NCBI RefSeq assembly: GCF_031426875.1
Contig: NZ_JASJPC010000018.1
Location: 2,428 to 66,427, forward strand
Direction of reading: 5' to 3'
DNA length: 64,000 nucleotides
From: Sulfuritalea sp.
GTDB lineage: Bacteria > Pseudomonadota > Gammaproteobacteria > Burkholderiales > Rhodocyclaceae
A program made the translations under genes and the position numbers. Position 1 is the stretch's first letter; each line of letters opens with the position of its first letter. The notes beneath the pieces were generated by a model. It was not told the DNA's origin and made no database searches. It was given only the letters and a program-made list of their open reading frames with translations. Below are positions 2,440-61,127 of the stretch, in pieces.

Positions 2440-3587
2440 TCGGACAGGAGGCCTTCGAAAGTGAGTTCGTAGATGCGCGCCAGCGGTTCGAGATCGGCCA
2501 CCGCGATGCGTTCGTCCACCTTGTGGATGCTGGCGTTGGTCGGGCCGAACTCGACCAGTTGCGGGCAGATGTCGGCGATGAAGCGGCCGTCGGAAGTGCC
2601 GCCGGTGGTCGATAGTTCGATGGCGCCGCCGGTCACGGCCGCCGCCGCCGCGCTCAAGGCGTCGCAGAGTTCGCCGCGCGGCGTCAGGAAGGGTTTGGCG
2701 CCCAGCGTCCAGGCGATCTCGTATTCGAGCCCGTGGCGGTCGAGCAGGGCATGCACGCGGGATTGCAGGCTGTCCACGGTGCTGGCCGTGGAAAAGCGGA
2801 AGTTGAACATGATCTCGAAACTGCCGGGCACGACATTGCCGGCGCCCGTGCCGGCGTGGGCGTTGGAAATCTGGAAGCTGGTGGGCGGGAAATAGTCGTT
2901 GCCGGCGTCCCAGGTAGTTGCCGCGAGTTCGGCCAGCGCCGGTGCGGCGAGATGCACCGGATTCTTCACCAGATGCGGATAGGCGACATGGCCCTGCACG
3001 CCCTTGACGCGCAGCGTGGCCGAGAGCGAGCCGCGGCGGCCGTTCTTCATGGTGTCGCCGAGGCGGTCGACGCAGGTCGGCTCGCCGACGATGCAGAAGT
3101 CGATGATTTCGTTGCGCGCCTTGAGCGCTTCGACCACGCGCACCGTGCCGTCGACCGCATCGCCTTCCTCGTCGGAGGTCAGCAACAGCGCCAGGGAGTT
3201 GGCGCTGACGCCACGGCGCGCAATCAGGCGTTCCATGGCGACGATGGCGGCGGCGATCGAGCTTTTCATGTCGGCCGCGCCGCGACCGTAGAGCCAGCCG
3301 TCGCGCACGGTCGGCTCGAAAGGCGGCGAGGTCCATTGTTCCAGCGGGCCGGTGGGCACCACGTCGGTGTGGCCGGCAAAGCAGATCAGGCGGCCGGCGG
3401 GTTTGCCACCGGGTTTGCCACCCGCGTCGCGCCGCGCCCAGAGGTTAGAGACGCCGCCGGCATCGATGCGTTCGATGTGAAAACCCAGCCGGATCAGCCA
3501 GGAGGCGATCAGGTCGAGGCAGCCGGCATCGTCGGGCGTCACCGACGGGCGCGCGATCAGCGCCCTGGCTTTTTCCAGGACCGGCAT
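2436..3587 (-). CDS. dapE: Succinyl-diaminopimelate desuccinylase
   Basis: [50 protein letters not shown]. Confidence 0.95.
3196..3218 (+). repeat. 23-bp motif copy inside dapE (antisense)
   Basis: GAGTTGGCGCTGACGCCACGGCG. Confidence 0.8.
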
Positions 3588-4777
3588 CAGGCGTCCATGT
3601 TCAGCTTGAAGTCGCTGAAGGATCCGGGCGCGACGGACTTGGTGTAATCGGGGGCCGCGGACGGGTCGGGCTGCGCCGCCGGGGCCGCGGCTGCAGCGGC
3701 GCCGGCCGCCGCCGGGGCTGCGGCGTTGTTGATCACCTGCTGCAGGTTGTTGGCCGAATCGGCGTTGTTCAGCGCTTCTTCGAGCGTGATGACGCCGGTG
3801 CTGTAGAGCGTGAACAGGCACTGCTCGAAGGTCTGGCTGCCGGGCACCATGGACTTTTCCATGGCGTCCTTGATTTCGCCGAGGTCGCCCTTTTCGATCA
3901 GTTCGGCGATGTAGCGCGAATTGAGCAGCACTTCGACGGCCGGCGCGCGGCCGCCGTCGGGCTTCTTCACCAGGCGCTGCGAGATCACGCATTTCAGCGT
4001 GACGCCGAGGTCGGAGAGCAGGGCCGGGCGGTTTTCCAGCGGATAGAAGCTGATGATGCGGCTCATCGCGTGGTAGCTGTTGTTGGCGTGCAGCGTGGCC
4101 ATGCACAGGTGGCCGGATTGGGCGTAGGCGATGGCCTGGCTCATGGTGTCCTTGTCGCGGATCTCGCCGATGAAAATGACGTCGGGCGCCTGGCGCAGCG
4201 CGTTCTTCAGCGCGATGTGGAAGGCCTTGGTGTCGGAGCCGACCTCGCGCTGATTGACGATGGATTTCTTGTTCTGGAAGATGAACTCGACCGGGTCTTC
4301 CAGCGTCAGGATGTGGCCCGACTTGCGCGCGTTGCGGTAGTCGATCATCGAGGTCAGGGTGGTCGACTTGCCCGAGCCGGTGGCGCCGACCATCAGGATC
4401 AGGCCGCGCTTTTCCATGATGACTTCCTTGAGCACTTCGGGCAGCTGGAGCGAGTCGAAATCCGGAATGTCGCCGGGGATGTAGCGCACCACGATGGCCG
4501 GCGAACCTTTCTGGCGGAAACAGGACAGACGGAAGTTGCCGGTGCCGGGCATGTTGTAGGCGCCGTTGAATTCCAGTTCCTCGAGAAACTCGTTCATCTG
4601 CTTCTCGGTCAGAACCTCGCCGAACAGCGTCATGATGGTCGCCGCATCCATGATCGTCTGGTTGATCGGCACCGAATTGCCGTTGATCTTGATGTGGATC
4701 GGCGAACCGACGGAGACGAACAGGTCCGAAGCCTTCTTCTCCGCCATCAACTGGAACAGTCTCTGCATCGTGCCCAT
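3587..4777 (-). CDS. pilU: PilT/PilU-family type IVa pilus ATPase (PilU-like)
   Basis: Walker [32 protein letters not shown], His-box TLHANN. Confidence 0.85.
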
Positions 4778-4804
4778 GCTGGTCTCCTCCGGGGATTGCC
4801 TGCG

Positions 4805-5623: not shown

Positions 5624-5634
5624 GGCGGCTTCTT

Positions 5635-6840
5635 TCAGAGAGATAGACAAAAATCGTTGATGCGGCGCGCGGCTTCGAGGCATTCCTGGTGCGGTGCGAC
5701 CAGCGCGATGCGGATGAAGTCGGCGCCCGGATTGATGCCGTTCGCTTCGCGCGCGAGGTAGCTGCCCGGCAGCACCACGACGTTCTTCTGGCGCAGCAGT
5801 TCGCGGGCGAATTCGGTGTCGGCGATCGGAGTCCTGGCCCAGAGGTAGAAGCCGGCATCCGGCACGCGGCAATCCAGGTGGCGGGCGATCAGCGGCGTGA
5901 CTTCATGGAATTTTTCGGCATACATGCGGCGGTTGTCGCGCACGTGGGCCTCGTCGCCCCAGGCGGCGATGCTGGCGGCCTGGACCGCCGGGTTCATGGC
6001 GCCGCCGTGGTAAGTGCGATAGAGCAGGAACTGCTTGAGCACGGCGGCATCGCCGGCGACGAAGCCCGAGCGCAGTCCCGGCACGTTGGAACGCTTGGAA
6101 AGGCTGGAGAAGGCGACGAGGTTGCGGTAGTCGGCGCGGCCCAGTTGCGCGGCGGCGGTGAGGCTGCCCAGGGGCGGCCGGCTTTCGTCGAAATAGATTT
6201 CCGAGTAGCACTCGTCCGAGGCGATGACGAAGCCATGACGGTCGGACAGCTCGAACAGGGCTTTCCAGGCGGCCAGGTCCATCACCTTGCCGGTTGGGTT
6301 GGCCGGCGAACAGACATAGACCAGTTGCACCTCGCGCCAGGTGCTCTGCGGCAGCGAGGCCCAGTCCATGTCGAAATCATTGTGCGGCAAGGTGTTGAGG
6401 TAGATGGGCTCGGCGCCGGCGAGCAGCGCGGCGCCTTCGTAGATCTGGTAGAAGGGATTGGGGCAGACCACCTTGGCGCCGCCGTTGCCACGATGGCGGC
6501 TGCGGTCGATGACGGTCTGGGCGAAGGCAAACAACGCTTCGCGCGAGCCATTCACCGGCACCACCTGGGTCGCCGCATCGGGTGCCGGCACGCCGTAGCG
6601 GCGTGCGATCCAGCCGGCGATGGCCTGGCGCAGCGCCTCCGAACCCTGCGTAGTCGGATAGTTGGCGAGCCCGGCGAGGTTGTCCGCCAGCGCGCGCTGG
6701 ATGAAAGGCGGCGTCGGATGCTGCGGCTCGCCGATCGACAGCTTGATCTCGCCGAGAGTTGGCGCTGGCGACACGCCGGCAAACAGCTGGCGCAGCTTTT
6801 CGAAGGGATAGGGCTGCAGGCGGGCGAGATCGGGATTCAC
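5635..6840 (-). CDS. dapC: Succinyldiaminopimelate transaminase
   Basis: GTG start, [38 protein letters not shown] (PLP lysine); first gene of dap operon. Confidence 0.92.
6756..6778 (+). repeat. 23-bp motif copy inside dapC (antisense)
   Basis: GAGTTGGCGCTGGCGACACGCCG. Confidence 0.8.
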
Positions 6841-6972
6841 GGAGCGGCGCGGGAGGGACGGAAAGGACGGCATTATACGAGAGCCCATAGTCGGGCGACG
6901 GGCCGGGACGGCTGGTCGATGCCGGCAGATTTCCGGTACATTCGCATTTCTGCAGCGCCTGAGGAGACAAGC

Positions 6973-7644
6973 ATGGGACAGATGATCGAATTCAAGCGGC
7001 CGGACGGCAGCGTCTGCGGCGGCTACCTGGCCGGCGCCGGCCAGGGTCGCCCCGGGGTGGTGGTGATCCAGGAATGGTGGGGACTCAATGACCAGATCTG
7101 CGGCGTTGCCGACCGCTTCGCGCGTGCCGGTTACAACGCGCTGGCGCCCGACTTGTTCAAGGGCCGCGTCACCCAGGAGCCCGACGAGGCCAGCCACCTG
7201 ATGAGCGGCCTGGATTTTCCCGGCGCCACGCATCAGGACATCCGCGGTGCGGTGGACCATCTGCGCGGCATGGACGGCAACGCCAAGGTCGCCGTGATGG
7301 GCTTCTGCATGGGCGGCGCGCTGACCATCGCGGCGGCCGTGCATGTGCCGAATGTTTCGGCCGCCGTGTGCTTCTACGGCATCCCGCCCAAGGAATTCGC
7401 CGATGCGGCGGATATCCGCATTCCGTTCCAGGGGCATTTCGCCAGCAAGGACGACTGGTGCACCCCGGCCGCCGTCGGTGCGCTGGAGGCCGCGATGCGC
7501 GCCAGGGGCGCGATGCCGGACCTGTATCGCTACGAAGCCGACCATGCCTTCTTCAACGAGCGGCGCGGCGAGGTCTACGACGCGGCCTGCGCCAACCAGG
7601 CCTGGAGTCGCACGCTGGCCTTCCTGGCCGGGGCCCTGGGCTGA
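6973..7644 (+). CDS. Dienelactone hydrolase family protein
   Basis: IQEWWGL, GFCMGG nucleophile, YEADHAFFN; RBS GAGGAG. Confidence 0.9.
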   Translation: MGQMIEFKRPDGSVCGGYLAGAGQGRPGVVVIQEWWGLNDQICGVADRFARAGYNALAPDLFKGRVTQEPDEASHLMSGLDFPGATHQDIRGAVDHLRGMDGNAKVAVMGFCMGGALTIAAAVHVPNVSAAVCFYGIPPKEFADAADIRIPFQGHFASKDDWCTPAAVGALEAAMRARGAMPDLYRYEADHAFFNERRGEVYDAACANQAWSRTLAFLAGALG

Positions 7645-7647
7645 TCC

Positions 7648-8100
7648 ATGCCGACACCCGAACTGACACCCGCCGACTGGGTGAATATCAGCCTCACCGA
7701 GGCCTTGCTGGCGCGCGACGGTCCGCCGCTCTACGTCGCCGCCAAGCTCGGCTGCCTTGCCGCGGTGAAAGTGATGTGCGAGGCCGGCACCAACGTCGAG
7801 GTGCTCGGTCCGAACAAGCAGCGCCCGCTGCACGCGGCGGCGGCCGGCGGCCACGAGAGCATCGCGGCGACCCTGGTCAGCGCCGGCTGTGATGTCGATG
7901 CCCAGGACGAGGACGGCAACACGCCGCTGATCACGGCGATACTCAATGGTCATGCCGCGCCGGTCGAATTGCTGCTGGCGGTCGGCGCCGATATCGAGAT
8001 CGCGCGGCTCGACGGCCTCACCGCGATCCACATGGCGCAACTGCCGGGCACGCCGAAAGTCATCTACGAGTTGATCATGCTCGGCCAGGAGGAGATCTGA
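7648..8100 (+). CDS. Ankyrin-repeat protein
   Basis: PLHAAAAGGH, GNTPLITAILNGH, GLTAIHMA ankyrin consensus repeats. Confidence 0.85.
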   Translation: MPTPELTPADWVNISLTEALLARDGPPLYVAAKLGCLAAVKVMCEAGTNVEVLGPNKQRPLHAAAAGGHESIAATLVSAGCDVDAQDEDGNTPLITAILNGHAAPVELLLAVGADIEIARLDGLTAIHMAQLPGTPKVIYELIMLGQEEI

Positions 8101-8116
8101 AGCGCAAGGCTCCGGC

Positions 8117-8658: not shown

Positions 8659-8659
8659 A

Positions 8660-12515: not shown

Positions 12516-12598
12516 GAGTTGGCGCTGATGAAGCAACTGCGCTACAAGGCGGTCGAGCAAACTACGCTCTCCTCGCCGTAGCGGATGGCGATACGGCG
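12516..12598 (+). repeat. 83-bp long form of the 23-bp motif, copy 1
   Basis: 69/83 identical to 54560-54642 by manual alignment; ends match the two halves of the short motif. Confidence 0.8.
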
Positions 12599-15718: not shown

Positions 15719-15741
15719 CGCCGTGGCGCCAGCGGCAACTT
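15719..15741 (-). repeat. 23-bp motif copy, intergenic
   Basis: rc AAGTTGCCGCTGGCGCCACGGCG. Confidence 0.75.
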
Positions 15742-18915: not shown

Positions 18916-18938
18916 AAGTTGGCGCTGGCGGCACGGCG
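18916..18938 (+). repeat. 23-bp motif copy, divergent intergenic
   Basis: AAGTTGGCGCTGGCGGCACGGCG. Confidence 0.8.
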
Positions 18939-22013: not shown

Positions 22014-22036
22014 GAGTTGGCGCTGGCGCCACGGCG
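22014..22036 (+). repeat. 23-bp motif copy, intergenic
   Basis: GAGTTGGCGCTGGCGCCACGGCG. Confidence 0.8.
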
Positions 22037-22063: not shown

Positions 22064-22402
22064 CTAAGCCTTCTTCACGAACTCCGATTTCAGCTGCATC
22101 GCGCCGATGCCGTCGATCTTGCAGTCGATGTCGTGATCGCCTTCGACCAAGCGGATGTTCTTGACCTTGGTGCCGACCTTGACCACCGACGACGAGCCCT
22201 TGATCTTGAGATCCTTGATCACGGTCACGGTGTCGCCGTCCTGCAGCACGTTGCCGTTGGAGTCCTTGACGACGCGCTTCTCGTCGCCGCCGGCCGCAGC
22301 CAGCTTGGGCCATTCGTGGGCGCATTCCGGGCAGACGTAGTTCTCGCCGTCTTCGTAGGTGAATTCCGAACTGCATTGCGGACATTGGGGCAGGGTGCTC
22401 AT
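22064..22402 (-). CDS. Zinc-ribbon protein, YjdM/PhnA family
   Basis: [39 protein letters not shown]. Confidence 0.92.
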
Positions 22403-22482: not shown

Positions 22483-22558
22483 TGGCTCCTCGACCTGGGC
22501 TCGAACCAGGGACCTACGGATTAACAGTCCGGCGCTCTACCAACTGAGCTATCGAGGA
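22483..22558 (-). tRNA. tRNA-Asn (GTT)
   Basis: TCCTCGATAGCTCAGTTGGTAGAGCGCCGGACTGTTAATCCGTAGGTCCCTGGTTCGAGCCCAGGTCGAGGAGCCA, 76 nt, cloverleaf, CCA end. Confidence 0.97.
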
Positions 22559-22612: not shown

Positions 22613-23815
22613 TTACTTCTTCAGCACCGTGGCGATGGCCTTGGCGACGTAGTCGATGTTGCGCGTGTTGAGCGCGGCGACGCAGATGCGGCCGGTGCTG
22701 ACGGCGTAGATGCCGAATTCGGCGCGCAGCCTTTCGACCTGTTCGGCGGTCAGTCCGGTGTAGCTGAACATGCCGCGCTGCACCTTGATGAACTCGAAAC
22801 CGGTGGCGCCGGCCGCGCTGAGCTTGTCCACTAGACTGTTGCGCATGGTACGGATGCGCTCGCGCATGCCGGCCAGCTCGTCTTCCCATTGCTGGCGCAG
22901 TTCCGGGCTGGAGAGCACGGCAGCGACGACGGCGCCGCCATGGGTCGGCGGGTTGGAATAGTTGGTGCGGATCACGCGCTTGACCTGCGAGAGTACGCGC
23001 GCCGATTCGTCCTTGCCGGCGGTGACGATGGTCAGCGCGCCGACGCGCTCGCCGTAGAGCGAGAAGGACTTGCTGAAGCTGCTGGAAACCACGAACTGCA
23101 GGCCGGAGGCGGCGAACAGGTCGAGCGCGATGGCGTCGGGCTTGATGCCGTCGGCGAAGCCCTGATAAGCCATGTCGATGAAGGCGACCAGATCGCGCGC
23201 CTTGACTGCTTCGACCACTTCGGCCCACTGCGAGGCGCTCAGATCGGCGCCTGTGGGGTTGTGGCAGCAGGCGTGCAGCACGACGACGGACTTGGCCGGC
23301 ATCGCCGCCAGCGCGGCCTTCATGCCGGCAAAATCGACGCCGCGCGTGGCCGCGTCGTAGTAGGCGTAGTTTTCGACCGTGAAGCCGGCGGATTCGAACA
23401 GCGCGCGGTGGTTTTCCCAGCTCGGGTCGCTGATATAGACCTTGGCGTCGGGCAGCAGGCGCTTCAGGTAGTCGGCGCCGACCTTCAGCGCGCCGGTACC
23501 GCCGAGGCATTCGCAGGTGATGGCGCGGCCGGCGGCGAGCAGTGCGGAATCCTTGCCGAAGAGCAGGCCCTGCACCGCGTTGTTGTAAGCGGGAATGCCC
23601 TCGATCGGCTGGTAGCCGCGTGCCGGCTGGGTTTCCAGGCGGGCCTTCTCGGCGGTCTTGACCGCGGCCAGCAGCGGGATCTTGCCGTCGTCGCCGAAAT
23701 AGACGCCGACGCCGAGGTTCACCTTGTTCGGGTTGGTGTCGGCATTGAAGGCTTCGTTGAGGCCCAGGATGGGGTCGCGGGGGGCCATTTCGACGGCGGC
23801 GAAGATAGAACTCAT
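22613..23815 (-). CDS. tyrB: Aromatic amino acid/aspartate aminotransferase
   Basis: APRDPILGL, NLGVGVY, HACCHNPTG, DMAYQGF, SKSFSLYGERVG. Confidence 0.88.
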   Translation of the reverse strand: MSSIFAAVEMAPRDPILGLNEAFNADTNPNKVNLGVGVYFGDDGKIPLLAAVKTAEKARLETQPARGYQPIEGIPAYNNAVQGLLFGKDSALLAAGRAITCECLGGTGALKVGADYLKRLLPDAKVYISDPSWENHRALFESAGFTVENYAYYDAATRGVDFAGMKAALAAMPAKSVVVLHACCHNPTGADLSASQWAEVVEAVKARDLVAFIDMAYQGFADGIKPDAIALDLFAASGLQFVVSSSFSKSFSLYGERVGALTIVTAGKDESARVLSQVKRVIRTNYSNPPTHGGAVVAAVLSSPELRQQWEDELAGMRERIRTMRNSLVDKLSAAGATGFEFIKVQRGMFSYTGLTAEQVERLRAEFGIYAVSTGRICVAALNTRNIDYVAKAIATVLKK

Positions 23816-23842: not shown

Positions 23843-23865
23843 AAGTTGGCGCTGGCGCTACGGCG
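23843..23865 (+). repeat. 23-bp motif copy, tyrB/uvrB divergent intergenic
   Basis: AAGTTGGCGCTGGCGCTACGGCG. Confidence 0.8.
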
Positions 23866-26722: not shown

Positions 26723-29518
26723 TCAGTCGTGCTTGGTTTCCACCAGTTGCAGCGGCTCGTTGGGGATCACCGGCGCCGCCTTCGGCTTGCGGCCAAGAGG
26801 CTGTGTCGGGGCGAAGGTGTTCGCGACCGGTGCCGCATGGCTGGTTTCGATCATCACCAGGCCGACCTGCTGCAGGGATTCCTTGACATCGACCGGGGCG
26901 GGCTGCGGTGCCGGCGGCACGATGATCGGATCGGCAGCCGCCACGGGCTCAGGGGCCGCCGCGGCTTGCGGTGCGGCTTCCACGATGGGCTGCGGCGCTG
27001 GCGCCACAGGTGCCGGCGCGGTGACAGGTGCCACCGGTGCGACAGGCTCCGCCACGACGGCAGCCACCGACATCTCGACTTCAGGCGCGGCAGGCGCCGC
27101 GGCTTCGGCCGGGACTTCGGCTGCAACAACTGGCGTCGCGACCTGCTCCTGGACTGCTGTGGGGACCGCTTCGGCTATCGGAGCCCTTACCGGCTCGATT
27201 GCTGCCGCAGGCATAGCCACGGCGATGCCGGCTTCGTCGGTGACGGGCGCGGTGGCCTGAACGGCAACGAATCCTTCAGCTGCGGCTTCCGTCGTGCTGC
27301 CTTCCTCGCTGCGCCCACGGCCACGACCGCGGCCGCGACTGCGGCGTCCGCTGCGGGCTTCGCCTTCCTGGCCGGCGCCTTCGTTGCCGGGAGTTGGCGC
27401 TGGCGACACGCCATTCTGGGCGGCCTCGCCACGCGGCGGACGCGGTTCGCGCGGCTCGCGTGGCGGACGCGGTTCGCGGACTTCCTTCGGCTCCCGGGCT
27501 TCCCTGGGTTCGCGGGCCTCCTTGGGTTCCCTCGGCTCGCGTGGCTCACGCGGCTCGCGCGGTTTGCGGTTGCCCGTTTCGCCTTGGGTCTCGTCGCGCT
27601 TGCCTTGCGGGCGCGGAGTCTGCTCGCCGCGTTCCTTGCGCTCGCCGCCTTCGCGGTTGTCGCGACCGTCGCGACGACCATTGCGATCGCGGCCGCCACG
27701 GCCACCTTCGCGATTGCCATCGCGATTGCGGTCGCGCGAGCCTTCACGGCGCGGCGGCCGGTCGGCCTTGGCTTCGGCAGGTGCCGGTGCCGCGGGCGTC
27801 GCGCCGCCGGTGAAGAAGGACACCAGCTTGCTGAAGAAACCGGCTTCGCGGGCCGCCACGGGCTGGGCGACGGGCGCAACGGCCTTCGGCTCGACGATCG
27901 GCGCCGGCTGGTCGGGCGTGATGCCCTTGACCGCGGCTTCGATCTTGACCGGCTTGGCTTCGGCGTTGGCCGAGGGCGGCTGATAGGCTTCCTCGATCGG
28001 CTTTTCCGCCATCTGGTAGCTGGCGAGGACGACGCCCTCGGCATTCAGCTGATCGTGGCGCAGGCGGACGATTTCATGGGCCGGCGTCTCCAGGTGGCGG
28101 TTGGGCACGATCACCAGATTGACGCGGTGGCGCATCTCGATGCGCGAGATGTCGACGCGCTTTTCGTTGAGCAGGAAGGTGGCGACATCCACCGGGACCT
28201 GGCAATGCAGGGCGCCGGTGTTTTCCTTCATCGATTCCTCTTCGAGGATGCGCAGGATGTGCAGCGCGGCCGATTCGGTGCTGCGGATGTGGCCGGTGCC
28301 GGTGCAGCGCGGGCAGGTGATGTAGCTGGTTTCGGCAAGCGCCGGACGCAGGCGCTGGCGCGACAGTTCGAGCAGGCCGAAGCGGCTGATCTTGCCGGTC
28401 TGGACCCGGGCGCGGTCGAAGTGCAGGGCGTCGCGCAGGCGGTTCTCGACTTCACGCTGGTTCTTGGTCGATTCCATGTCGATGAAGTCGATCACGATCA
28501 GGCCGCCGAGGTCGCGCAGGCGCAACTGGCGGGCGATTTCGTCGGCGGCTTCGCAGTTGGTGCGCAGCGCCGTTTCCTCGATGTCGCTGCCTTTGGTGGC
28601 GCGGCCCGAGTTGACGTCGACCGAGACCAGGGCTTCGGTATGGTCGATGACGATGGCGCCGCCCGAAGGCAGCGTGACCTGGCGCGAGTAGGCCGATTCG
28701 ATCTGATGTTCGATCTGGAAGCGCGAGAACAGCGGCACGTCGTCGTGGTAGCGCTTGACGCGATTCACGGTGCCCGGCATCACGTGCGCCATGAACTGCT
28801 GCGCCTGTTCGAAGATGTCGTCGGTGTCGATCAGGATCTCGCCGATTTCGGAGTGGAAGTAGTCGCGGATGGCGCGGATCACCAGGCTGGATTCCTGGTA
28901 GATCAGGAAGGCGCCGCTCTGGGCCTTGGCCGCGCCGTCGATGGCGGTCCACAGTTGCAGCAGGTAGTTCAAGTCCCACTGCAGTTCTTCGAGGCTGCGG
29001 CCGATGCCGGCGGTGCGGGCGATCAGGCTGGTGCCGCTGGGAACCACGAGCTGGTCCATGATTTCGCGCAATTCCTGGCGGTCGTCGCCCTCGACACGGC
29101 GCGAAACGCCGCCGCCACGGGGATTGTTCGGCATCAGCACCAGGTAGCGGCCGGCCAGCGAGACATAGGTGGTCAGCGCCGCGCCCTTGTTGCCGCGCTC
29201 GTCCTTTTCGACCTGGACGATGAGTTCCTGGCCGTTGCTGAGCACGTCCTGGATGCGCGCCTTGCCGGCGTCGACGCCGGGCTTGAAATAGGTGCGGGAA
29301 ATTTCCTTGAACGGCAGGAAGCCGTGACGTTCGGCGCCATAGTCCACGAAGGCGGCTTCGAGGCTGGGCTCGATGCGCGTGATGACGGCCTTGTAGATGT
29401 TGCTCTTGCGCTGCTCTTTGTTGGCTGATTCGATGTCGAGGTCAATCAGCTTCTGACCATCGACGATCGCGACGCGGAGTTCCTCAGCCTGCGTCGCATT
29501 GAAAAGCATGCGTTTCAT
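26723..29518 (-). CDS. rne: Ribonuclease E
   Basis: [18 protein letters not shown]1 domain, DVNSG, DFIDM, CPRCTG Zn-link, disordered Arg/Pro-rich CTD. Confidence 0.97.
27391..27413 (+). repeat. 23-bp motif copy inside rne (antisense)
   Basis: GAGTTGGCGCTGGCGACACGCCA. Confidence 0.8.
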
Positions 29519-37729: not shown

Positions 37730-38512
37730 ATGACCGCCCCGGTGATCCGCATTCGCGACTTGTCCACCCGCTTCGGCGAGGTCTGGATCCACCAGGGTCT
37801 GAACCTCGACATCGAGCGCGGCGAGCTGGTTTCGCTGGTGGGCGGTTCCGGCAGCGGCAAGACCACGCTGCTGCGCATGGTGGTCGGCTTGCTGCTGCCG
37901 ACCAAGGGCAGCATCGAACTCTTCGGCGAGCCGCTGTTCGGCGGCGGCGTGGCGCGCGAGCGAGCGCTGCGCCAGCGTTTCGGCGTGCTGTTCCAGCACG
38001 GGGCGCTGTTTTCAGCCTTCAACGTGTTCGACAATATCGCCTTTCCCCTGCGCGAACTGAAGCGCTACGACGAGGATGCGATTCACGACCTGGTCATGCT
38101 CAAGCTGTCGATGGTGGAACTGCTGCCGCGCCATGGCCGGCTGATGCCGTCCGAGCTTTCCGGCGGCATGGTCAAGCGCGTCGCGCTGGCGCGCGCTTTG
38201 GCGCTGGAACCCGAGCTGCTGCTGCTCGACGAGCCGACCGCCGGGCTCGACCCCGACCGCTCCGACAGTTTTGTGCGCCTGATCCGCATGCTCGGCGAAG
38301 AACTCGGGCTCACGGTCATGCTGGTCACGCACGACCTCGACACGCTGGCTGCGCTTTCCACGCGCGTTGCGGTACTCGGCGAGCAGCGCATCCTCGCCTA
38401 CGGCACGACGGACGAAATCATTCAAGTCGATCATCCCTTCATCCGCAACTTTTTCCTTTCCGAGCGCAGCGTGCGGGCCCTGCAGAATTCCGGGCTGGCG
38501 GCGCCACACTAA
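37730..38512 (+). CDS. MlaF-like ABC ATP-binding protein
   Basis: GGSGSGKT, LSGGMVKR, LLLDEPTAGLDP. Confidence 0.92.
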   Translation: MTAPVIRIRDLSTRFGEVWIHQGLNLDIERGELVSLVGGSGSGKTTLLRMVVGLLLPTKGSIELFGEPLFGGGVARERALRQRFGVLFQHGALFSAFNVFDNIAFPLRELKRYDEDAIHDLVMLKLSMVELLPRHGRLMPSELSGGMVKRVALARALALEPELLLLDEPTAGLDPDRSDSFVRLIRMLGEELGLTVMLVTHDLDTLAALSTRVAVLGEQRILAYGTTDEIIQVDHPFIRNFFLSERSVRALQNSGLAAPH

Positions 38513-38687
38513 CGCTCATGGCTTCGATGGACCACCCTGCAATATGAAATCTCGCACCTTCGATGGGCCCCAAGCTGGCAAATGGGCCCGCCCCTCCCAT
38601 CCTCCCCTCACGGGGAGGCTATTGATCGGCTCGCTGCGCTCGAACCTTACACAGCGCGCTTGGCGACGTATTTCACGTTAAAAGACC

Positions 38688-39635
38688 ATGGAAAATCGAT
38701 CTCACGCGCTGGCTGCCGGCATTTTCACCCTGCTGCTGGGCATTGCCTCGGCAATTGCCATCTGGTGGCTGGGGCAGAGCGACGAATCGACCACGACCTA
38801 CCTGCTGGAAACGCGGCGCAACGTGACCGGGCTCAACGTCCAGGCCCAGGTCCGCTATCGTGGCATTCGCGCCGGCAAGGTGGAGGCCATCGAGCCCGAC
38901 GAGGCGGACCCGCGCGTGATCCTGGTGCGCATCAATGTCGACAACCGCTTCAAGCTGACCCGCGGCAGCACGGCCTCGCTTGGCTATCAGGGGGTCACCG
39001 GCCTGGCCTATGTGCAGATCGAGGATGACGGATCGTCGATCGAGCCGCTGGTCGGGCCGGACGGCGCGGTGCCGCGCATTGCGCTGAAGCCGACCCTGTT
39101 CGAGACGCTGGGCGACAAGGCCGGCGACATCGTCGAGCAGATCAGCGTCGTATCGCTGCGCCTGGGCAAGCTGCTCGACGAGAAGAATGCGCAGAACCTC
39201 GCGCGCACGCTGGAGAATCTGGCCGAGGCTTCCGACGGCCTGCGCGAGATGCCGAAAATTCTCGCCGCAGTGCGCGAGGCGCTGTCGGAAAGCAATTTGC
39301 GCAGCCTGCGGCAGATCCTGGTGCATGTCGAAAAGACGGCGGGCGAGACGGCACCGCTGACGGCTGAAATGCGCGAGCTGGTGAAGTCGATGGGCGTCCT
39401 GTCGCAGCGCTTCGAGCAACTGGCAGCCGGTGCCGGAAACGAGCTGACGACCAACACCCTGCCGCGCGCCAACGCCCTGATGCAGGAACTGGCGACCAGT
39501 TCGCGGCAGCTTTCGCGCGTGCTCGACAGCCTCGAAAACAATCCGCAGATGCTGTTGTTCGGTCGCGGCAAGACAGGTTCCGGCCCCGGAGAAGCGGGCT
39601 TTTCCGCCCCGGCCAAACAGGGAGAGGTGCGATGA
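38688..39635 (+). CDS. MlaD/MCE family protein
   Basis: N-terminal TM, VTGL...VRYRGI..GKV, QGVTGLAYVQI, long helical C-terminus. Confidence 0.9.
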   Translation: MENRSHALAAGIFTLLLGIASAIAIWWLGQSDESTTTYLLETRRNVTGLNVQAQVRYRGIRAGKVEAIEPDEADPRVILVRINVDNRFKLTRGSTASLGYQGVTGLAYVQIEDDGSSIEPLVGPDGAVPRIALKPTLFETLGDKAGDIVEQISVVSLRLGKLLDEKNAQNLARTLENLAEASDGLREMPKILAAVREALSESNLRSLRQILVHVEKTAGETAPLTAEMRELVKSMGVLSQRFEQLAAGAGNELTTNTLPRANALMQELATSSRQLSRVLDSLENNPQMLLFGRGKTGSGPGEAGFSAPAKQGEVR

Positions 39636-40256: not shown

Positions 40257-41894
40257 ATGAGCAATCCCTACGCCGCCGGCCTGGAGAAGAATCCGGCCAA
40301 TTATGTGCCGCTGACGCCGCTGACCTTCATCGAACGTTCCGCCTACATCTATTCCGAGCGCGTGGCGAGCATCCACGGCGCGCGCCGCTACACCTGGGCC
40401 CAGGCCTACGAGCGCAGCCGGCGCCTGGCCTCGGCGCTGGCGGCGCAAGGAGTTGGCGCTGGCGACACGGTGGCGGCGATGCTCAACAACACGCCCGAGA
40501 TGTTCGAATGCCATTTCGGCGTGCCGATGTGCGGCGCCGTGCTGAATACCCTGAACACGCGCCTCGACGCCGAATCGATCGCCTTCATGCTCAACCACGG
40601 CGAGGCCAAGGTGCTGATCACCGACCGCGAGTATTCGACGATGGTCAGAAAGGCCCTGGCCGAACTGGGGCGCAGCATCCTCGTCGTCGATGTCGACGAT
40701 CCCGAATACACCGGCCCCGGCGAGCGCCTGGGCACGCTCGACTATGAGAGCTTCCTCGCCACCGGCAATCCCGCCTACGCCTGGAAGACGCCGGCCGACG
40801 AGTGGGAAGCGATCTCGCTCAACTACACCTCGGGCACCACCGGCAACCCCAAGGGCGTGGTCTATCACCACCGCGGCGCTTATCTCAACGCGCTGTCCAA
40901 CATCGTCTCCTGGGGCATGCCGCCGCAGTCGATCTACCTGTGGACCCTGCCGATGTTCCATTGCAACGGCTGGTGCTTCCCCTGGACCGTGGCGGCCAAT
41001 TCCGGCACCAATGTCTGCCTGCGCCGCGTCGATCCCAAGCTGATTCTCGATGCCATCCGCGAGCACAAGGTCAGCCATTATTGCGGCGCGCCGATCGTGC
41101 ATTCGATGCTGATCAGCGCCCCGGCGGCCTGGCGCGAGGGCATCGAGCACAAGGTTTCGGCGCTGGTCGCCGCCGCGCCGCCGCCGGCCGCGGTGATCGA
41201 AGGCATGAACACGATCGGCTTCAACATCACCCATGTCTATGGCCTCACCGAAACCTATGGCCCGGCCGCGGTCTGCGCCAAGCACGAGGAATGGCTGGAA
41301 CTGCCGCTCGACGAACAGGTGCGCCTGAACGGCCGCCAGGGCGTGCGCTACCACTGCCAGGAAGGCATCACGGTGATGGACCCGGAAACCATGCTGCCGG
41401 TGCCCTGGGACGACCAGACCATGGGCGAGATCATGTTCCGCGGCAACATCGTGATGAAGGGCTACCTGAAGAATCCGAAGGCCACCGAAGAGGCCTTCCG
41501 CGGCGGCTGGTATCACACCGGCGACCTGGCCGTGATGCAGCCCGACGGCTACGTCAAGATCAAGGACCGCAGCAAGGACGTAATCATTTCGGGCGGCGAG
41601 AACATCTCCTCGATCGAGGTCGAGGACACGCTGTATCGCCATCCGGCGGTGATGGGCGCCGCCGTGGTCGCCACCCCCGACGAGAAGTGGGGCGAGGTGC
41701 CCTGCGCCTTCATCGAACTGCGCGAAGGTTCGACCGTCACGGCCGAGGAACTGACCGAGTTCTGCCGCGAGCGCATGGCGCGCTTCAAGGTGCCGAAGAA
41801 GTTCATCTTCGAGGCGCTGCCCAAGACCTCGACCGGCAAGATCCAGAAGTACGTGCTGCGCGAGAAGGCCAAGTCGGCCGCCGCGATCGAATAA
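40257..41894 (+). CDS. Acyl-CoA synthetase (AMP-binding)
   Basis: YTSGTTGNPKG, YGLTE, HTGDLA, IISGGENISS, PKTSTGKIQK. Confidence 0.93.
   Translation: MSNPYAAGLEKNPANYVPLTPLTFIERSAYIYSERVASIHGARRYTWAQAYERSRRLASALAAQGVGAGDTVAAMLNNTPEMFECHFGVPMCGAVLNTLNTRLDAESIAFMLNHGEAKVLITDREYSTMVRKALAELGRSILVVDVDDPEYTGPGERLGTLDYESFLATGNPAYAWKTPADEWEAISLNYTSGTTGNPKGVVYHHRGAYLNALSNIVSWGMPPQSIYLWTLPMFHCNGWCFPWTVAANSGTNVCLRRVDPKLILDAIREHKVSHYCGAPIVHSMLISAPAAWREGIEHKVSALVAAAPPPAAVIEGMNTIGFNITHVYGLTETYGPAAVCAKHEEWLELPLDEQVRLNGRQGVRYHCQEGITVMDPETMLPVPWDDQTMGEIMFRGNIVMKGYLKNPKATEEAFRGGWYHTGDLAVMQPDGYVKIKDRSKDVIISGGENISSIEVEDTLYRHPAVMGAAVVATPDEKWGEVPCAFIELREGSTVTAEELTEFCRERMARFKVPKKFIFEALPKTSTGKIQKYVLREKAKSAAAIE
40450..40472 (+). 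repeat. 23-bp motif copy inside acyl-CoA synthetase (sense)
   Basis: GAGTTGGCGCTGGCGACACGGTG. Confidence 0.8.
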
Positions 41895-44309
41895 GTGATC
41901 TGGCTGCCGCGCCTGGGCGCCGCGCTGCTGGCGCTGTTCGTCACCGCCGTCGCGCTCGCCGTGATCTGGTGGCAGCGCGTGACGCCGGTCAGCGAAGGGC
42001 GGCTGGAGGTCGCCGGACTCGCGGGTGAAGTCAGCATCGAGCGCGACGACAACGGCATTCCGACGCTGCGCGGCGCCAGTCGCGATGCCGTGCTGTTCGG
42101 CCTCGGCTTCGTCCATGCGCAGGATCGCCTGTGGCAGCTCGAAACGCATCGCCGCATCGGCTCCGGGCGGCTGGCGGAAGCCTTCGGCCCGGCCGCGCTG
42201 GACAACGACAGGTTTCTGCGCGCCCTCGGCGTGCGGCATGCCGCGACCGCACAATGGGTCGCGCTGGGCGCCGACGCGCGCGCCGCGGTTCTGGCCTATA
42301 CCGCCGGCATCAACGCCTACATCGCCGATCATTTGCGCGCCCGTCCGCCGGAATTCCTGATCCTCGGCCTGCAGCCGGAACCCTGGACGCCGGAGGACAC
42401 GCTGGCCTGGGGCATCATGATGGCCTGGGATCTCGGCGCCAACTGGACCAATGAACTGCTGCGCATGCGCCTCGCCCTGAGCCTGCCGGTGGCGCGCATC
42501 GACCAGTTGTTGCCGCCCTATCCCGGCCAGAAGCCGCTGCCCGTGCGCGACTATGCGGCGCTGTATCGCGAGCTGAAACTCAGCGGCGATCTCGGCCAGC
42601 AGGCCCTGCTCGACGCACCCGAATCCGGCGTCGAAGGCGTCGGTTCGAACAACTGGGTGGTGGCCGGTTCGCGCAGTGCATCGGGCAAGCCACTGCTGGC
42701 CAACGATCCGCATCTCAAGCTGACGACGCCGGCCCTGTGGTATTTCGCGCGCCTCGAAGCGCCCGGCCTCAAGATGGCGGGCGCCACCATGCCCGGCCTG
42801 CCGCTGCTGGTGCTGGGCCAGAACGAACGCATCGCCTGGGGCTTCACCAACACCAATCCCGACGTCCAGGACGTCTACCTCGAACAGATCAAGCCCGACG
42901 ATGCGACGCGCTATCGCACGCCCGACGGCTGGGCAGCGTTCCAGTCCTACACCGAGACCATCCGCGTCAAGGGCGGGGCCGACGTCACCCTGGTCACGCG
43001 GGCGACACGCCACGGGCCGGTGATTTCGGATGCCGGCACGCCGGTCGTCGCCGGCCTCACGGGAAAGCCGGGCGGCCCGGGCTATGCCCTGGCCCTGCGC
43101 TGGACGGCGCTGGATGCCGATGCCGCCAGCATCGATGGCGGGCTGGCGATCGGCGCTGCCGGATCGGTGGCCGAGTTCGTCGCGGCGGCGGAGAAGTACA
43201 AGGCGCCGATGCAGAACATGGTGGTGGCGGACGTCGCCGGCAGCATCGGCTTCATCGCCGCCGGGCGCGTGCCGCTGCGCGGCGCCGACAACGATCTGCA
43301 AGGCCAGGCGCCGGCGCCGGGCTGGGAGGCGCGCTACGACTGGATCGGCTTCGTCGATCCGGGCCAGACGCCGCGCGAGATCGACCCGCCGCGCGGCTGG
43401 ATCGCCACCGCCAATCACCGTGTCGCCAGCGCCAACTATCCGCATTACATCACCAGCGAATGGGCCTTGCCCTACCGCCAGCAGCGTATCGAGACCCTGC
43501 TCGCAGCGCAGCCGAAACACGACAAAGAAAGCCTGCGCCGCATCCAGGCCGATGTCCTTTCACCAGCGGCGCAGCGCCTGCTGCCCTGGCTGAAGAAGGC
43601 GCAGCCGACGCATGCGCTGGGAGCGGCCGCGACGCAGCGCCTGGCCGGCTTCGAGGGCGAAATGCGCGCGCTCGACGTCGCGCCGACCATCTTCGCCGCC
43701 TGGGCGCGCGAGCTGACGCGCGCGGTGTTCGCCGACGAAATGGGCGGCGACGAGATGTATTTGCGCCAGGTCGGCCGCGCCGATTTCCGTGCCGCGCTGG
43801 AAGGCGTGCTTGACCGCGACGATGCCTGGTGGTGCGACGACAAATCGACGCCGGCCGCGGAAACCTGCGCCGCGCTGGTCAACCGTTCGCTCGACCGCGC
43901 CCTCGACGAGTTGCAGCAACGCCTGGGGCCGGACATGGCGCGCTGGCACTGGGGCGTGGTGCATCTGGCACGCGCCGAGCACCGGCCGTTCTCCAAGGTC
44001 AGGGCGCTGGCGCCGTGGTTCGAACTGCGCGTCGCCACCGGCGGCGACAACTACACGGTGAATGTCGGCCGCTATCACCTCAAAGGCGACGAACCCTATC
44101 TCAACGAGCATGCCGCCAGCCTGCGCGCCATCTATGACCTGGGCAACCCCACGAACTCCGGCGTGATGCATTCGAGCGGACAGTCCGGCCTGGTGCTCTC
44201 GCCCGATTTCAGGCGTCTGCTCGAACCCTGGCAGGCGGTGCGCGATCTGCCGCTGTGGGGCGGCGGCGGCAAGAAACTGGTGCTGCAGGGCCGCCCTGCG
44301 GCAAAATGA
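41895..44309 (+). CDS. Penicillin acylase family (Ntn hydrolase)
   Basis: GFVHAQDRLWQ, GSNNW nucleophile, ANDPHL, GQSG; GTG start right after upstream stop. Confidence 0.9.
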   Translation: MIWLPRLGAALLALFVTAVALAVIWWQRVTPVSEGRLEVAGLAGEVSIERDDNGIPTLRGASRDAVLFGLGFVHAQDRLWQLETHRRIGSGRLAEAFGPAALDNDRFLRALGVRHAATAQWVALGADARAAVLAYTAGINAYIADHLRARPPEFLILGLQPEPWTPEDTLAWGIMMAWDLGANWTNELLRMRLALSLPVARIDQLLPPYPGQKPLPVRDYAALYRELKLSGDLGQQALLDAPESGVEGVGSNNWVVAGSRSASGKPLLANDPHLKLTTPALWYFARLEAPGLKMAGATMPGLPLLVLGQNERIAWGFTNTNPDVQDVYLEQIKPDDATRYRTPDGWAAFQSYTETIRVKGGADVTLVTRATRHGPVISDAGTPVVAGLTGKPGGPGYALALRWTALDADAASIDGGLAIGAAGSVAEFVAAAEKYKAPMQNMVVADVAGSIGFIAAGRVPLRGADNDLQGQAPAPGWEARYDWIGFVDPGQTPREIDPPRGWIATANHRVASANYPHYITSEWALPYRQQRIETLLAAQPKHDKESLRRIQADVLSPAAQRLLPWLKKAQPTHALGAAATQRLAGFEGEMRALDVAPTIFAAWARELTRAVFADEMGGDEMYLRQVGRADFRAALEGVLDRDDAWWCDDKSTPAAETCAALVNRSLDRALDELQQRLGPDMARWHWGVVHLARAEHRPFSKVRALAPWFELRVATGGDNYTVNVGRYHLKGDEPYLNEHAASLRAIYDLGNPTNSGVMHSSGQSGLVLSPDFRRLLEPWQAVRDLPLWGGGGKKLVLQGRPAAK
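43416..43438 (-). repeat. 23-bp motif copy inside penicillin acylase (antisense)
   Basis: rc TAGTTGGCGCTGGCGACACGGTG. Confidence 0.8.
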
Positions 44310-45163: not shown

Positions 45164-46342
45164 ATGGGCTTTGCTCCCTTTTCCATTTCCCGCCTGCCGC
45201 GGATCGAGTTCGGCCAGGGTTCCCTGGAACGCTTGCCCGACATCGCCGCCGGCTATGGCAAACGACTGCTGCTGGTCACCGGCGCACGCAGCTTTCTCGC
45301 CTCGGCCAATGCCGTGCGGCTGTTCGATGCCTTGCGCCAGCGCGGTTGCAGTTGGGAAATCGTCAAGATCACCGTCGAGCCGGCGCCGACTTTCATCGAC
45401 GCCACCGTCGCGGCGATGCGCGTCGAAGCATTCGACGCGGTGATCGGCATCGGCGGCGGCAGCGCGCTCGATGCGGCGAAAGCCATCGCCGCATTGCTGA
45501 AACCCGGCAATTCGGTGATGGATCACCTGGAAGGTGTCGGCCCCGAGCTGCCCTATGCCGGTCCGGCGACACCCTTCATTGCCGTTCCGACCACCGCCGG
45601 GACAGGCTCGGAAGCCACCAGGAACGCGGTGCTGTCGATCGAAGGGCGATTCAAGAAATCCTTCCGCGACGAAAAGCTGGTGGCCGAATGGGCCATCGTC
45701 GATCCCGAACTGATCTCCGGTTGTCCACCGCAGCTGGTCGCCGCCGATGGCATGGATGCCTTCACGCAGTTGCTCGAATCCTTCGTATCGACGCGCAGCA
45801 ATCCGATGACCGATGCGCTGGCGCGTTCCGGCATCATGGCCGTCAAGGACGGGCTGCTGTCGCTGTATGCGGCGCAGTCCGCAGCGGCGCGCGAGAAGAT
45901 GGCTTACGCATCGCTGCTGTCGGGCATCTGCCTGGCGCAGACCGGCCTCGGTTCGGTGCATGGCCTTGCTGCGCCGCTCGGCGCCTTCTTCCCCATTCCC
46001 CACGGCGCCGCCTGTGGCACGCTGGTGGCAACGGCGACGGCCGCCAACATCGAGGCGCTGGAAAGGCGCGAACCCGACAATCCTGCGCTGCCGAAATACG
46101 CCGAGATAGGCCGTCGTTTCGCCATGCAGAAAGGCTTGAACGGGCGCGACGCGCGCAGCTTCCTCGTCAGCACCTTGCGGCAGTGGGAGCAGACGCTGGC
46201 CTTGCCCCGTCTGTCGCATTGGCGTGTCGCCAGCGCCGACTTTCCGCGCATCGTGGCGAATTGCCGCGGCAGCAGCATGAAGACCAACCCGATCGTGCTC
46301 ACCGACGAGGAGCTTGTCGGGGTGCTGGCAGCTAGGCTCTAG
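45164..46342 (+). CDS. Iron-containing alcohol dehydrogenase
   Basis: GGGSALD, PTTAGTGSE, DAFTQ, H..A, HG.AC. Confidence 0.9.
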   Translation: MGFAPFSISRLPRIEFGQGSLERLPDIAAGYGKRLLLVTGARSFLASANAVRLFDALRQRGCSWEIVKITVEPAPTFIDATVAAMRVEAFDAVIGIGGGSALDAAKAIAALLKPGNSVMDHLEGVGPELPYAGPATPFIAVPTTAGTGSEATRNAVLSIEGRFKKSFRDEKLVAEWAIVDPELISGCPPQLVAADGMDAFTQLLESFVSTRSNPMTDALARSGIMAVKDGLLSLYAAQSAAAREKMAYASLLSGICLAQTGLGSVHGLAAPLGAFFPIPHGAACGTLVATATAANIEALERREPDNPALPKYAEIGRRFAMQKGLNGRDARSFLVSTLRQWEQTLALPRLSHWRVASADFPRIVANCRGSSMKTNPIVLTDEELVGVLAARL

Positions 46343-54533: not shown

Positions 54534-54559
54534 TGCGCGAGGTGTCCAGATGTCTCGCC

Positions 54560-54642
54560 AAGTCGGCGCTGATGAAGCCCCTGCGCAGCAGGGCGGTCGG
54601 GCAAAGAACGCTCTCCTCGCCGCTGCGGATGGCGGCACGGCG
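54560..54642 (+). repeat. 83-bp long form of the 23-bp motif, copy 2
   Basis: 69/83 identical to 12516-12598. Confidence 0.8.
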
Positions 54643-54683
54643 CAGCGGGCCGTATATGCGATTCAAATTGCGGGAGCGGAAGC

Positions 54684-54992: not shown

Positions 54993-55081
54993 AGCGCTTC
55001 TTGGAATCCGGCCCGAAGCTTTCCCGGGGCCGTGGTGACCAACACTACACACGGGGAGGCCTATGCACGAGGAGATGAACA

Positions 55082-56812
<1,731 letters not shown>

Positions 56813-56835
56813 TCCGGGTTTTCGGCTACCAGGTT

Positions 56836-56876
56836 TGGCCGCGCGTGTGCCGAGTGCCGCGCGCGGCCATTTATTT
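56836..56876 (+). terminator. Intrinsic terminator of glycerol operon
   Basis: TGGCCGCGCG/CGCGCGGCCA stem followed by TTTATTT. Confidence 0.65.
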
Positions 56877-56917
56877 GCATATCCCCAACGAAATGGGGAT
56901 ACTCGAAACTTTAGGCC

Positions 56918-59725
<2,808 letters not shown>

Positions 59726-59837
59726 GCGTCGCCGCCGGGCCGCCCCAAGGCGGCGCAGCAAGAAACATGGAGCCGCGTCAGCGGCGAACCAGCGTCATCC
59801 CCTGCCTTGGGCAGGGGAATGGGAGGAGGATCGTTCG

Positions 59838-61127
59838 ATGAGTCGGAGCGTTCTTGCCGAAGGCGTCAAGCCGCGCGAGGTCTGGGCCTGGGCCATGTAC
59901 GACTTCGCCAACTCGGCCTACACGACGACCGTGGTGACGGCGATCTTCAACGCCTATTTCGTCGCCGTAGTGGCCGGCGGCGCGGCCTGGGCGACGCTGG
60001 CCTGGACCACCACGCAGGCCATCGCCAGCATCGCCATCATGCTCACCGCGGCCAGTGTCGGCGCCTGGGCCGATCGCCATGGCAACAAGAAGAAATTGCT
60101 GGCCATCACCACCGTCGGTTGCGTCGCGGCTACCGCGTTGCTGTACTGGGTCGGTCCCGGCGACGTGGTGCTGGCCATGTGCCTGGTGGCGATCGCCAGC
60201 TTCTTTTTCGGCAGCGGCGAAAACATCATCGCCGCCTTCCTGCCGGAGCTGGCCGGCGACGAGGATCTGGGCAAGGTTTCCGGCTGGGGCTGGAGCTGGG
60301 GTTATCTGGGGGGCATGAGCTGTCTCGGTCTTTGTCTGGCCTGGATCGTCGCCGCCAAGGGGCGCGGCGAGGGCGCCGAAAGCTTCGTCCCCGCGGCCAT
60401 GCTGATCACCGCCGTGTTCTTCGCCGTGGCGTCAGCGCCAACTTTCCTGCTCCTGCGCGAACGCGTGGCGGCGCGGCCGGTGGCGGCGGCCGGCGCCGAA
60501 TTCGCGGCGCTGGCGCAGCGGCTGCGGCGCACCCTGCACGAGGTGCGGCGCTTTCCCGACATGGCGCGTTTCCTGGTCTGCCTGCTGTGCTACCAATCGG
60601 GAGTCTTCGCCGCCATCGCGCTGGCCGCCATCTACGCGCAGGAAGCGATCGGCTTCACCGCGGAGGACAACATCAAGCTGTTCTTCGTGGTGAATGGCAC
60701 GGCGGCGGTCGGCGCCTTCGCCTTCGGTTACGTGCAGGACCGGCTCGGCCATGTGCGCACCATCGCCCTGACCCTGGCCGGCTGGCTGCTGATGACGGCG
60801 ATTGCCCTGGGTTCGGATAGCCGCGGGCAGTTCTGGGTGGCGGCCAACATCGCCGGCCTCTGTCTCGGTTCCAGCCAGTCCGCCTCGCGGGCGCTGGTGG
60901 GCTTCTTCGCGCCTGTGCAGCGGCGCGCCGAATTCTTCGGGCTCTGGGGCCTGGCCATGAAGCTCGCGGCCATCGCCGGGCCGATGACCTACGGCCTGAC
61001 GACCTGGCTGTCGGGCGGCAACCACCGCCTGGCGCTGGGGATCACCGGGCTGTATTTCGTCGGCGGACTGCTGCTGCTGATCGGCATCGATGCCAGGCGC
61101 GGCCGCGCCGCCGCGCTGGCAGACTGA
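59838..61127 (+). CDS. MFS transporter (UMF1-like)
   Basis: WAMYDFANSAY, about 12 hydrophobic segments, QSASRAL, EFFGLW. Confidence 0.88.
   Translation: MSRSVLAEGVKPREVWAWAMYDFANSAYTTTVVTAIFNAYFVAVVAGGAAWATLAWTTTQAIASIAIMLTAASVGAWADRHGNKKKLLAITTVGCVAATALLYWVGPGDVVLAMCLVAIASFFFGSGENIIAAFLPELAGDEDLGKVSGWGWSWGYLGGMSCLGLCLAWIVAAKGRGEGAESFVPAAMLITAVFFAVASAPTFLLLRERVAARPVAAAGAEFAALAQRLRRTLHEVRRFPDMARFLVCLLCYQSGVFAAIALAAIYAQEAIGFTAEDNIKLFFVVNGTAAVGAFAFGYVQDRLGHVRTIALTLAGWLLMTAIALGSDSRGQFWVAANIAGLCLGSSQSASRALVGFFAPVQRRAEFFGLWGLAMKLAAIAGPMTYGLTTWLSGGNHRLALGITGLYFVGGLLLLIGIDARRGRAAALAD
60422..60444 (-). repeat. 23-bp motif copy inside MFS gene (antisense)
   Basis: rc AAGTTGGCGCTGACGCCACGGCG. Confidence 0.8.

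Follow-up and report, generated by a model that had tools for sequence, protein, structure and literature searches.

The DNA analysed here (the window) is a stretch of 64,000 nt from Sulfuritalea sp., corresponding to positions 2428-66427 of contig C18 of the source genome (G000; 4.84 Mb, 75 contigs). Within and between its genes lie copies of an oriented 25-nt sequence, hereafter the word, of which the genome holds a total of about 800-900, roughly one per 5.5 kb. Comparison of these copies within and among genomes shows that the word is an old DNA tag, specific to one lineage and under active maintenance, whose population-genomic signature is that of the DNA uptake sequences (DUS) of Neisseriaceae and the uptake signal sequences (USS) of Pasteurellaceae. 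A molecular drive linked to DNA transfer is considered the most likely mechanism, and the word would then be a self-DNA tag of the Sulfuritalea clade of Rhodocyclaceae; this assignment is tentative, and we rate its chance of being correct at somewhat less than even.

Abundance, placement, and spacing of the word

The preliminary description of the window had reported a 23-bp non-palindromic motif. The motif is indeed non-palindromic, but the length given was too short: a logo of the genome-wide copies runs 2 nt further in the 5' direction and yields the oriented 25-nt consensus cRARAGTYGGCGCTGRCGNYACGGCG. Approximately 20 of its positions are near-invariant (conservation ≥84%), and the flanks show zero conservation, giving the word a sharp boundary. 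With the earlier consensus, 11 matches at ≤3 mismatches were obtained in the window versus 0.02 expected by chance, a number reached by 0 of 100 shuffles. Ten of these are the short copies listed previously (Table 1), all with correct coordinates and strands and with 0-2 mismatches; the eleventh, at 46220(-), is more degenerate and was absent from that list. The two long forms described before are real, the word being split in both after GCGCTG by a conserved 60-nt insert, and the identical 22-mer common to the copies at 40450 and 43416 was recovered. The genes to which in-gene copies had been assigned were likewise confirmed (DapE, DapC-like aminotransferase, RNase E, AMP-binding ligase, penicillin-amidase family, and major facilitator superfamily, MFS), and these copies, together with those in the Fe-ADH gene (46220) and at the edge of the DUF3301 gene (15719), use four classes of frame and orientation, in agreement with the diversity claimed.

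Gene calling in G000 used a codon-usage model that had been trained on the genome itself; it gave 4214 genes and a coding fraction of 87.7%. In the whole assembly, 216 exact matches and 795 matches at ≤3 mismatches to the earlier consensus demonstrated genome-wide over-representation; the copies are evenly spread over all large contigs and hence not confined to the window. For the 25-nt pattern, 251, 287, 197, 91, and 66 copies were counted at 0, 1, 2, 3, and 4 mismatches, respectively, whereas the reversed word gave 0, 0, 0, 1, and 6. At ≥6 mismatches there was no excess over controls, the copies being sharply peaked at near-perfect matches.

In G000, 477 copies are located in coding sequences (CDS; 60%), 306 are intergenic, and 12 lie across a gene edge. 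Intergenic DNA is approximately 3-fold enriched in the word (p 2e-78). The copies there favour gene tails, with 28.5% in convergent spacers versus 15.3% expected and a median distance of 30-40 nt from the stop codon. Copies in genes show a strong frame bias, with 226, 118, 70, 47, 14, and 2 copies in the six frame and orientation classes. The spacing is more even than Poisson: only 14 gaps are shorter than 400 nt (49 expected) and 54 are shorter than 1 kb (117 expected).

A replichore polarity, raised in the preliminary description, was not observed. Both strands are mixed, alternating within the contigs of G000; the strand of a copy does not depend on whether local GC skew is positive or negative (odds ratio 0.99), and copies on the two strands also intermingle along 2.9 Mb of the one-contig chromosome of the congener G002. 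These data bear on a possible role as a polar guide similar to Chi or KOPS (FtsK-orienting polar sequence), acting on RecBCD/AddAB or FtsK, which would fit its high copy number, its orientation, and its presence in coding DNA. The lack of strand polarity, also along the complete G002 chromosome, refutes this reading, and the word measures 25 nt versus 5-8 nt for such signals; we assign it next to no probability.

Origin of the copies in genes and conservation at orthologous sites

In three genes of the window, the word-encoded peptide aligns ungapped with distant homologues of solved structure: RRGVSANS in DapE with KHPNHQGS of Neisseria DapE (4ppz), GVGAGDTV in the acyl-CoA ligase (copy 40450) with GVGVGDRV of 1ult, and HRVASANY in the acylase (copy 43416) with ENNIPPDH of 7eby. 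Because no insertions or deletions separate these proteins from their homologues, the short word is shown, at the level of such alignments, to have been written over existing codons by base substitution and not to have been inserted, protein length being unchanged. For the short word this refutes an origin from remnants of a mini mobile element, which had been listed earlier as an alternative and which does touch the hairpin inserts treated below. In RuvA (G000 C4:36852-37451), the word-encoded peptide RVGAGDTA is located in the linker before the C-terminal domain.

The available orthologues also show that the word is near-perfectly kept at the same places across species. Conservation of word and flanks among species was compared at four sites: it was 0.91 versus 0.74-0.80 at the 23843 spacer and 0.85 versus 0.77 in the RNase E tail, and in dapE and dapC, which are under tight constraint, the word showed no excess over its flanks. 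Throughout the genus, the word occupies the orthologous positions in dapE, dapC, rne, and an intergenic spacer; it has T in G000 and its nearest kin and C in the other genomes, so that the dialect change was concerted over many old sites. Genome-wide, T occupies position 5 in 84% of the G000 copies (AGTT), with AGTC in most others. Among the copies listed, C was found in 98/98 for G002 and in 50/51 for G013, and other genera use AGTCGAC or AGTCAGC dialects.

Taxonomic range

The survey of related genomes revealed a lineage restriction together with these dialects. All 40 Sulfuritalea genomes searched carry the word in tens to hundreds of copies each; contigs with matches belong to Sulfuritalea and to unclassified Rhodocyclales metagenome-assembled genomes, and zero copies were found in 16 other families of the order. 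Among 151 Rhodocyclaceae genomes (completeness ≥90%), 21 from 12-13 genera are word-rich, with 70-900 copies at ≤3 mismatches versus 5-25 for the control. When relatives were ranked by their identity to G000 in a conserved protein of 690 aa, nearly all of them fell among the approximately 25 nearest; this group also contains a few word-poor genera, and there is one distant word-rich outlier (G140), whose congeners G067 and G195 are word-poor. The genera g47, g50, g40, and g92 are word-poor sisters of word-rich ones within the clade. As the word-rich genomes are thus nearly all close kin of G000, the spread of the word is consistent with a single origin, after which it was inherited and in some cases lost.

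Hairpin modules within the word and RAYT genes

In approximately 5-8% of the word copies, a short hairpin module resembling repetitive extragenic palindromes (REP) splits the word at a fixed point. Module A (60 nt, after GCGCTG) is present in approximately 25 copies genome-wide, mostly intergenic, and its stem shows compensatory changes (TAC/GTA versus AGC/GCT). Module B (27-45 nt) follows AGTT, and module C/D (39 nt) occurs in either orientation; of 43 C/D hairpins, approximately 30 are embedded in a word and the others stand alone. Covariation is seen in the stems of the modules, and their loops belong to the GCGAAGC type, which is typical of stable single-stranded DNA hairpins. Extra segments within in-gene words are multiples of three.

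At a given orthologous site, one species may have the short word and another a composite form. At the rne site (27391) a 39-nt B hairpin module is found at the same place in G002, G011, and G056, and at the 23843 spacer a composite D form is present in G011, the segment being absent from one clade. The dapE word is canonical in G000, whereas 12 extra nt are located within the word of its nearest kin (97% identical), with identical flanks on both sides. Given changes that are confined to the word and orthologues that are short or composite, we conclude from these alignments that the word is also a hot spot or preferred site for the gain and loss of small REP-like hairpin segments.

Four Y1 transposase genes (REP-associated tyrosine transposases, RAYT) were identified in G000. 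One of them (C37:3890-5100; L131/L313, RAYT-1) is enclosed by an inverted word pair, as REPs form at RAYTs, with a C1 composite word (minus) approximately 150 nt upstream and a short word (plus) approximately 150 nt downstream. A second (C72:13500-14300; L134) has tandem GTAGGGCGGA-type REP hairpins on both sides and is probably the source of the GTAG REPs mentioned in the preliminary description. RAYTs may move the hairpin modules. Homologues were not found in the word-rich genera g36 (3 genomes), g18, g41, and g28 and are common in word-poor genera; owing to this distribution, RAYT was rejected as keeper or writer of the word. An assignment of the word itself to REPs or bacterial interspersed mosaic elements (BIME) served by RAYT was also discarded, since the word is non-palindromic, lies to 60% in CDS, and persists in these four genera.

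In one of the two main rival explanations, the word would be the recognition site of a DNA enzyme (nuclease, nickase, recombinase, or HUH-type) that rewrites copies to consensus by short templated patches and inserts or excises hairpins, the word being the core of a BIME-like selfish mosaic. Such a system is in line with modules placed at fixed points in either orientation, with a hairpin family that resides largely within the word, with the alternation of short and composite forms at one site, and with the 12 extra nt of dapE between untouched flanks. Copies that are mostly perfect with few intermediates, the GCGAAGC-type loops, and the position of RAYT-1 between inverted word copies point in the same direction. 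However, the distribution of RAYT homologues among word-rich and word-poor genera argues against it, the short word forms no hairpin and enters genes without indels, and no enzyme co-occurring with the word was identified. Moreover, abrupt local changes could also result from recombination between conspecific alleles. We therefore regard this explanation as doubtful.

Foreign DNA, phages, and islands

The longest word-free stretches of G000 (20-33 kb) have a low GC content at third codon positions (GC3, 0.73-0.77 versus 0.82 overall) and contain a flagellar and glycosylation cluster as well as a polysaccharide cluster. Their interpretation as purely foreign islands is only partly true, since the infB-pnp core region is included. 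In long phage records with the word, 2-5 copies were counted in 42-75 kb, a density three to four times below that of the host. Word-poor genera have few copies, which are clustered beside P4-type integrases; from this arrangement we conclude that the copies in these genera mark imported islands.

A dispersed repeat with a sharp boundary that in some genomes clusters beside integrases might consist of insertions of miniature inverted-repeat transposable elements (MITE) or insertion sequence ends, or of integron attC sites. Against insertion stand the unchanged length versus homologues, the location of 60% of the copies inside conserved genes, the random flanks, and the lack of terminal inverted repeats and target duplications. 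The attC reading of the clusters in word-poor genomes was rejected, as the neighbouring integrases are P4-type island integrases and not IntI, and copies are dispersed in core genes. For the short word, explanations of this type are refuted.

Two loci with words at their borders were noted in other genera. In the word-poor G132 (L135:4076-5035), two arms of an inverted repeat, approximately 150 nt long and 99% complementary, each end in a word and enclose a 500-nt segment with a DprA-like fragment; the repeat adjoins a P4-type integrase and a UPF0175/DUF3368 toxin-antitoxin pair. A 3.6-kb block (L138:13885-17472, L141:3383-6937, G000 C9:81303-84903) is 84-85% identical across three genera versus approximately 73% in its surroundings, and in both other genera a word copy is located just beyond it. 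Either a shared island or a gene under very strong conservation may account for this block.

Competence genes and the mechanism of maintenance

G000 carries PilT/PilU, PilY1, PilW, and FimT-like genes for type IV pili (T4P) as well as ComEC and DprA. The gene of a PilT/PilU-family type IV pilus retraction ATPase is located in the window (3587-4777(-)), directly upstream of dapE. A search for ComP-like pilins, which the preliminary description had suggested, identified two minor pilins with a ComP_DUS domain (C36:2994-3410 and C30:40339-40797). The reading as an uptake signal is only partly supported: the genomic signature, T4P, ComP_DUS, ComEC, and DprA fit it; ComEA, the length of the core, and terminator pairs do not.

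Base substitution writes the word into existing sequence wherever the protein or spacer tolerates it. In the proposed self-DNA tag mechanism, fragments with a good copy would then be passed preferentially between cells, via uptake or another sequence-selective transfer, and recombine into the chromosome. Such a molecular drive, which is also the model proposed for the DUS of Neisseriaceae and the USS of Pasteurellaceae, would keep the word near-perfect. If recognition had shifted in specificity, this would account for the AGTT of this species group in place of AGTC at hundreds of orthologous copies. Candidates for the word-reading factor are the two minor pilins of the ComP_DUS type.

A number of observations weigh against this mechanism. 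No ComEA was detected in G000: the models HHH_3 (Pfam) and TIGR00426 (NCBIfam) matched only Tex, and tblastn with two ComEA proteins of the family added only the helix-hairpin-helix parts of UvrC and RuvA. TIGR00426 scored above cut-off in 1 of 21 word-rich versus 52 of 130 word-poor family genomes (Fisher p 0.001). Since the word-poor members of the G000 clade are also without ComEA, its absence is probably due to one clade-level loss rather than linked to the word. Without ComEA the canonical transformation pathway appears incomplete in the clade, so that the route may not be canonical. The ComP_DUS pilin failed as a discriminating marker, being present in 141 of 151 family genomes. The word has approximately 20 near-invariant positions versus 9-12 in known uptake signals. 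Inverted pairs at terminators, considered in the preliminary description, are nearly missing, with one close pair in the whole G000 genome. Hardly any intermediate copies exist at ≥5 mismatches, which makes a gradual gain by mutation plus bias hard to picture, and between genomes that are 95-97% identical in the flanks, abrupt changes are limited to the word.

The only terminator-like arrangements seen are head-to-head inverted word pairs with a 5-6 nt spacer, at C27:47016-47073 in G000 and C1:2869149-2869197 in G002.

With ComEA missing and a word of unusual length, more than one transfer route is conceivable. The word could be read outside ComEA-dependent transformation, either in a new sequence-selective transfer step (packaging or nicking of chromosomal DNA) or by a consensus-rewriting enzyme. 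We consider this improbable; either alternative, if true, would make the word a genome-wide drive element for which bacteria offer no described precedent.

In the other main rival explanation, the word would be kept with no DNA transfer if it were the binding site of an abundant chromosomal protein (nucleoid-organising or loop-anchoring), with weak selection on each site. The more even than random spacing would then reflect chromosome architecture, and the use of both orientations with no replichore bias would be expected. The long-term upkeep at orthologous sites, above the flanks where these vary freely, is compatible with such a role, as are the failure to find ComEA and the copies in phage records, and the long recognition sequence would suit a multi-domain protein or complex. 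On the other hand, selection would have to hold approximately 20 positions at each of approximately 900 sites, and no candidate protein was found. Drive accounts equally well for a dialect that shifted in concert and for the scarcity of the word in DNA that looks foreign. Known nucleoid sites differ from the word, since matS, SBS, NBS, and parS are short palindromes present in tens of copies. Overall, a chromosomal binding site seems unlikely.

Individual sites in the window

The copies in the window are compiled in Table 1. The 6756 word is found at the orthologous place in 27 genomes of the genus, two of which have a 21-nt insert after AGT. The gene call at this site, 5635-8040(-), comprises two joined reading frames. 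Because only residues 432-794 match the aminotransferase family, the true start of the DapC-like gene is probably near 6850, which would place the word close to its 5' end.

Table 1. Copies of the word in the 64-kb window
Form	Positions	Strand	Location and remarks
Short word	3196-3218	+	Antisense in dapE (M20 peptidase); encodes RRGVSANS; conserved across genus
Short word	6756-6778	+	Antisense near 5' end of DapC-like aminotransferase gene
Long form A	12516-12598	+	Word split after GCGCTG by 60-nt hairpin module; intergenic
Short word	15719-15741	-	5' edge of DUF3301 gene
Short word	18916-18938	+	Intergenic, between divergent genes
Short word	22014-22036	+	Intergenic, approximately 30 nt past stop of gene 22064-22402(-)
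Short word	23843-23865	+	Intergenic, 28 nt upstream of start of gene 22613-23815(-)
Short word	27391-27413	+	Antisense in C-terminal region of rne (RNase E)
Short word	40450-40472	+	Sense in AMP-binding ligase gene; encodes GVGAGDTV
Short word	43416-43438	-	Antisense in penicillin-amidase-family gene; encodes HRVASANY
Degenerate copy (3 mismatches, AGTC form)	46220-46242	-	Antisense in Fe-ADH gene
Long form A, second copy	54560-54642	+	Intergenic
Short word	60422-60444	-	Antisense in MFS/Atg22-like transporter gene

An Rfam scan of the window gave a tRNA gene (22486-22558(-)) as its sole match and none at the long form. Another dispersed repeat of approximately 170-175 nt is present in at least 14 copies in G000 at 77-90% identity (e.g. 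window 38511-38688; G000 C9:84906-85076). Its copy in the window takes up the whole spacer from the gene end at 38512 to the next gene start at 38688, and the repeat was found in another genus, too (L137:5476-5650).

Significance and comparison with known systems

To our knowledge, only two families of bacteria have established DNA uptake signals, and no published description of the word or of uptake sequences in Rhodocyclaceae was found in the literature library searched. A third such system, if true, would extend the phenomenon to environmental sulfur-oxidising and denitrifying Rhodocyclaceae. With a word of twice the known length in a clade without ComEA, it would provide a fresh test of the molecular-drive model. 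As Sulfuritalea has a cultured type strain, the uptake question is directly testable. Apart from the mechanism, the word shapes proteins by writing the same peptides into unrelated enzymes, attracts small in-frame insertions as a hot spot, labels islands that other genera have imported, and offers a precise taxonomic tag for the binning of metagenomes.

The word shares with Rickettsia palindromic elements (RPE) that a DNA repeat dictates peptides in unrelated proteins and that its composite forms add multiples of 3 nt. In contrast to RPE, which are insertions of 100-150 nt that lengthen proteins, the short word replaces residues. With the REP/BIME of enterobacteria and pseudomonads, whose RAYT is a Y1 HUH enzyme, it has in common that the modules A, B, and C/D are REP-like and form mosaic units with the word, and that one RAYT gene of G000 is located between inverted word copies and another between classic GTAG REPs. 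It differs from REP/BIME in being non-palindromic, in lying mostly inside genes, and in being kept in genomes where no RAYT was found.

DUS of Neisseriaceae consist of the 12-mer ATGCCGTCTGAA and its dialects, with the minor pilin ComP as their reader; in Pasteurellaceae, the USS has the 9-nt core AAGTGCGGT with flanking segments. Unlike these signals, the word spans 25 nt with approximately 20 near-invariant positions, twice as long as any uptake signal known. It occurs once per approximately 5.5 kb, whereas DUS and USS occur about once per 1 kb; it forms almost no inverted terminator pairs, hosts hairpin inserts, and is found in a clade with no recognisable ComEA. Like DUS and USS, it is present in hundreds of evenly spaced copies on both strands with no polarity, lies in genes in favoured frames and without indels, and is enriched near gene ends. 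As in those systems, the word has lineage-specific dialects, is sparse in foreign DNA, and is accompanied in G000 by ComP_DUS-type pilins, ComEC, and DprA.

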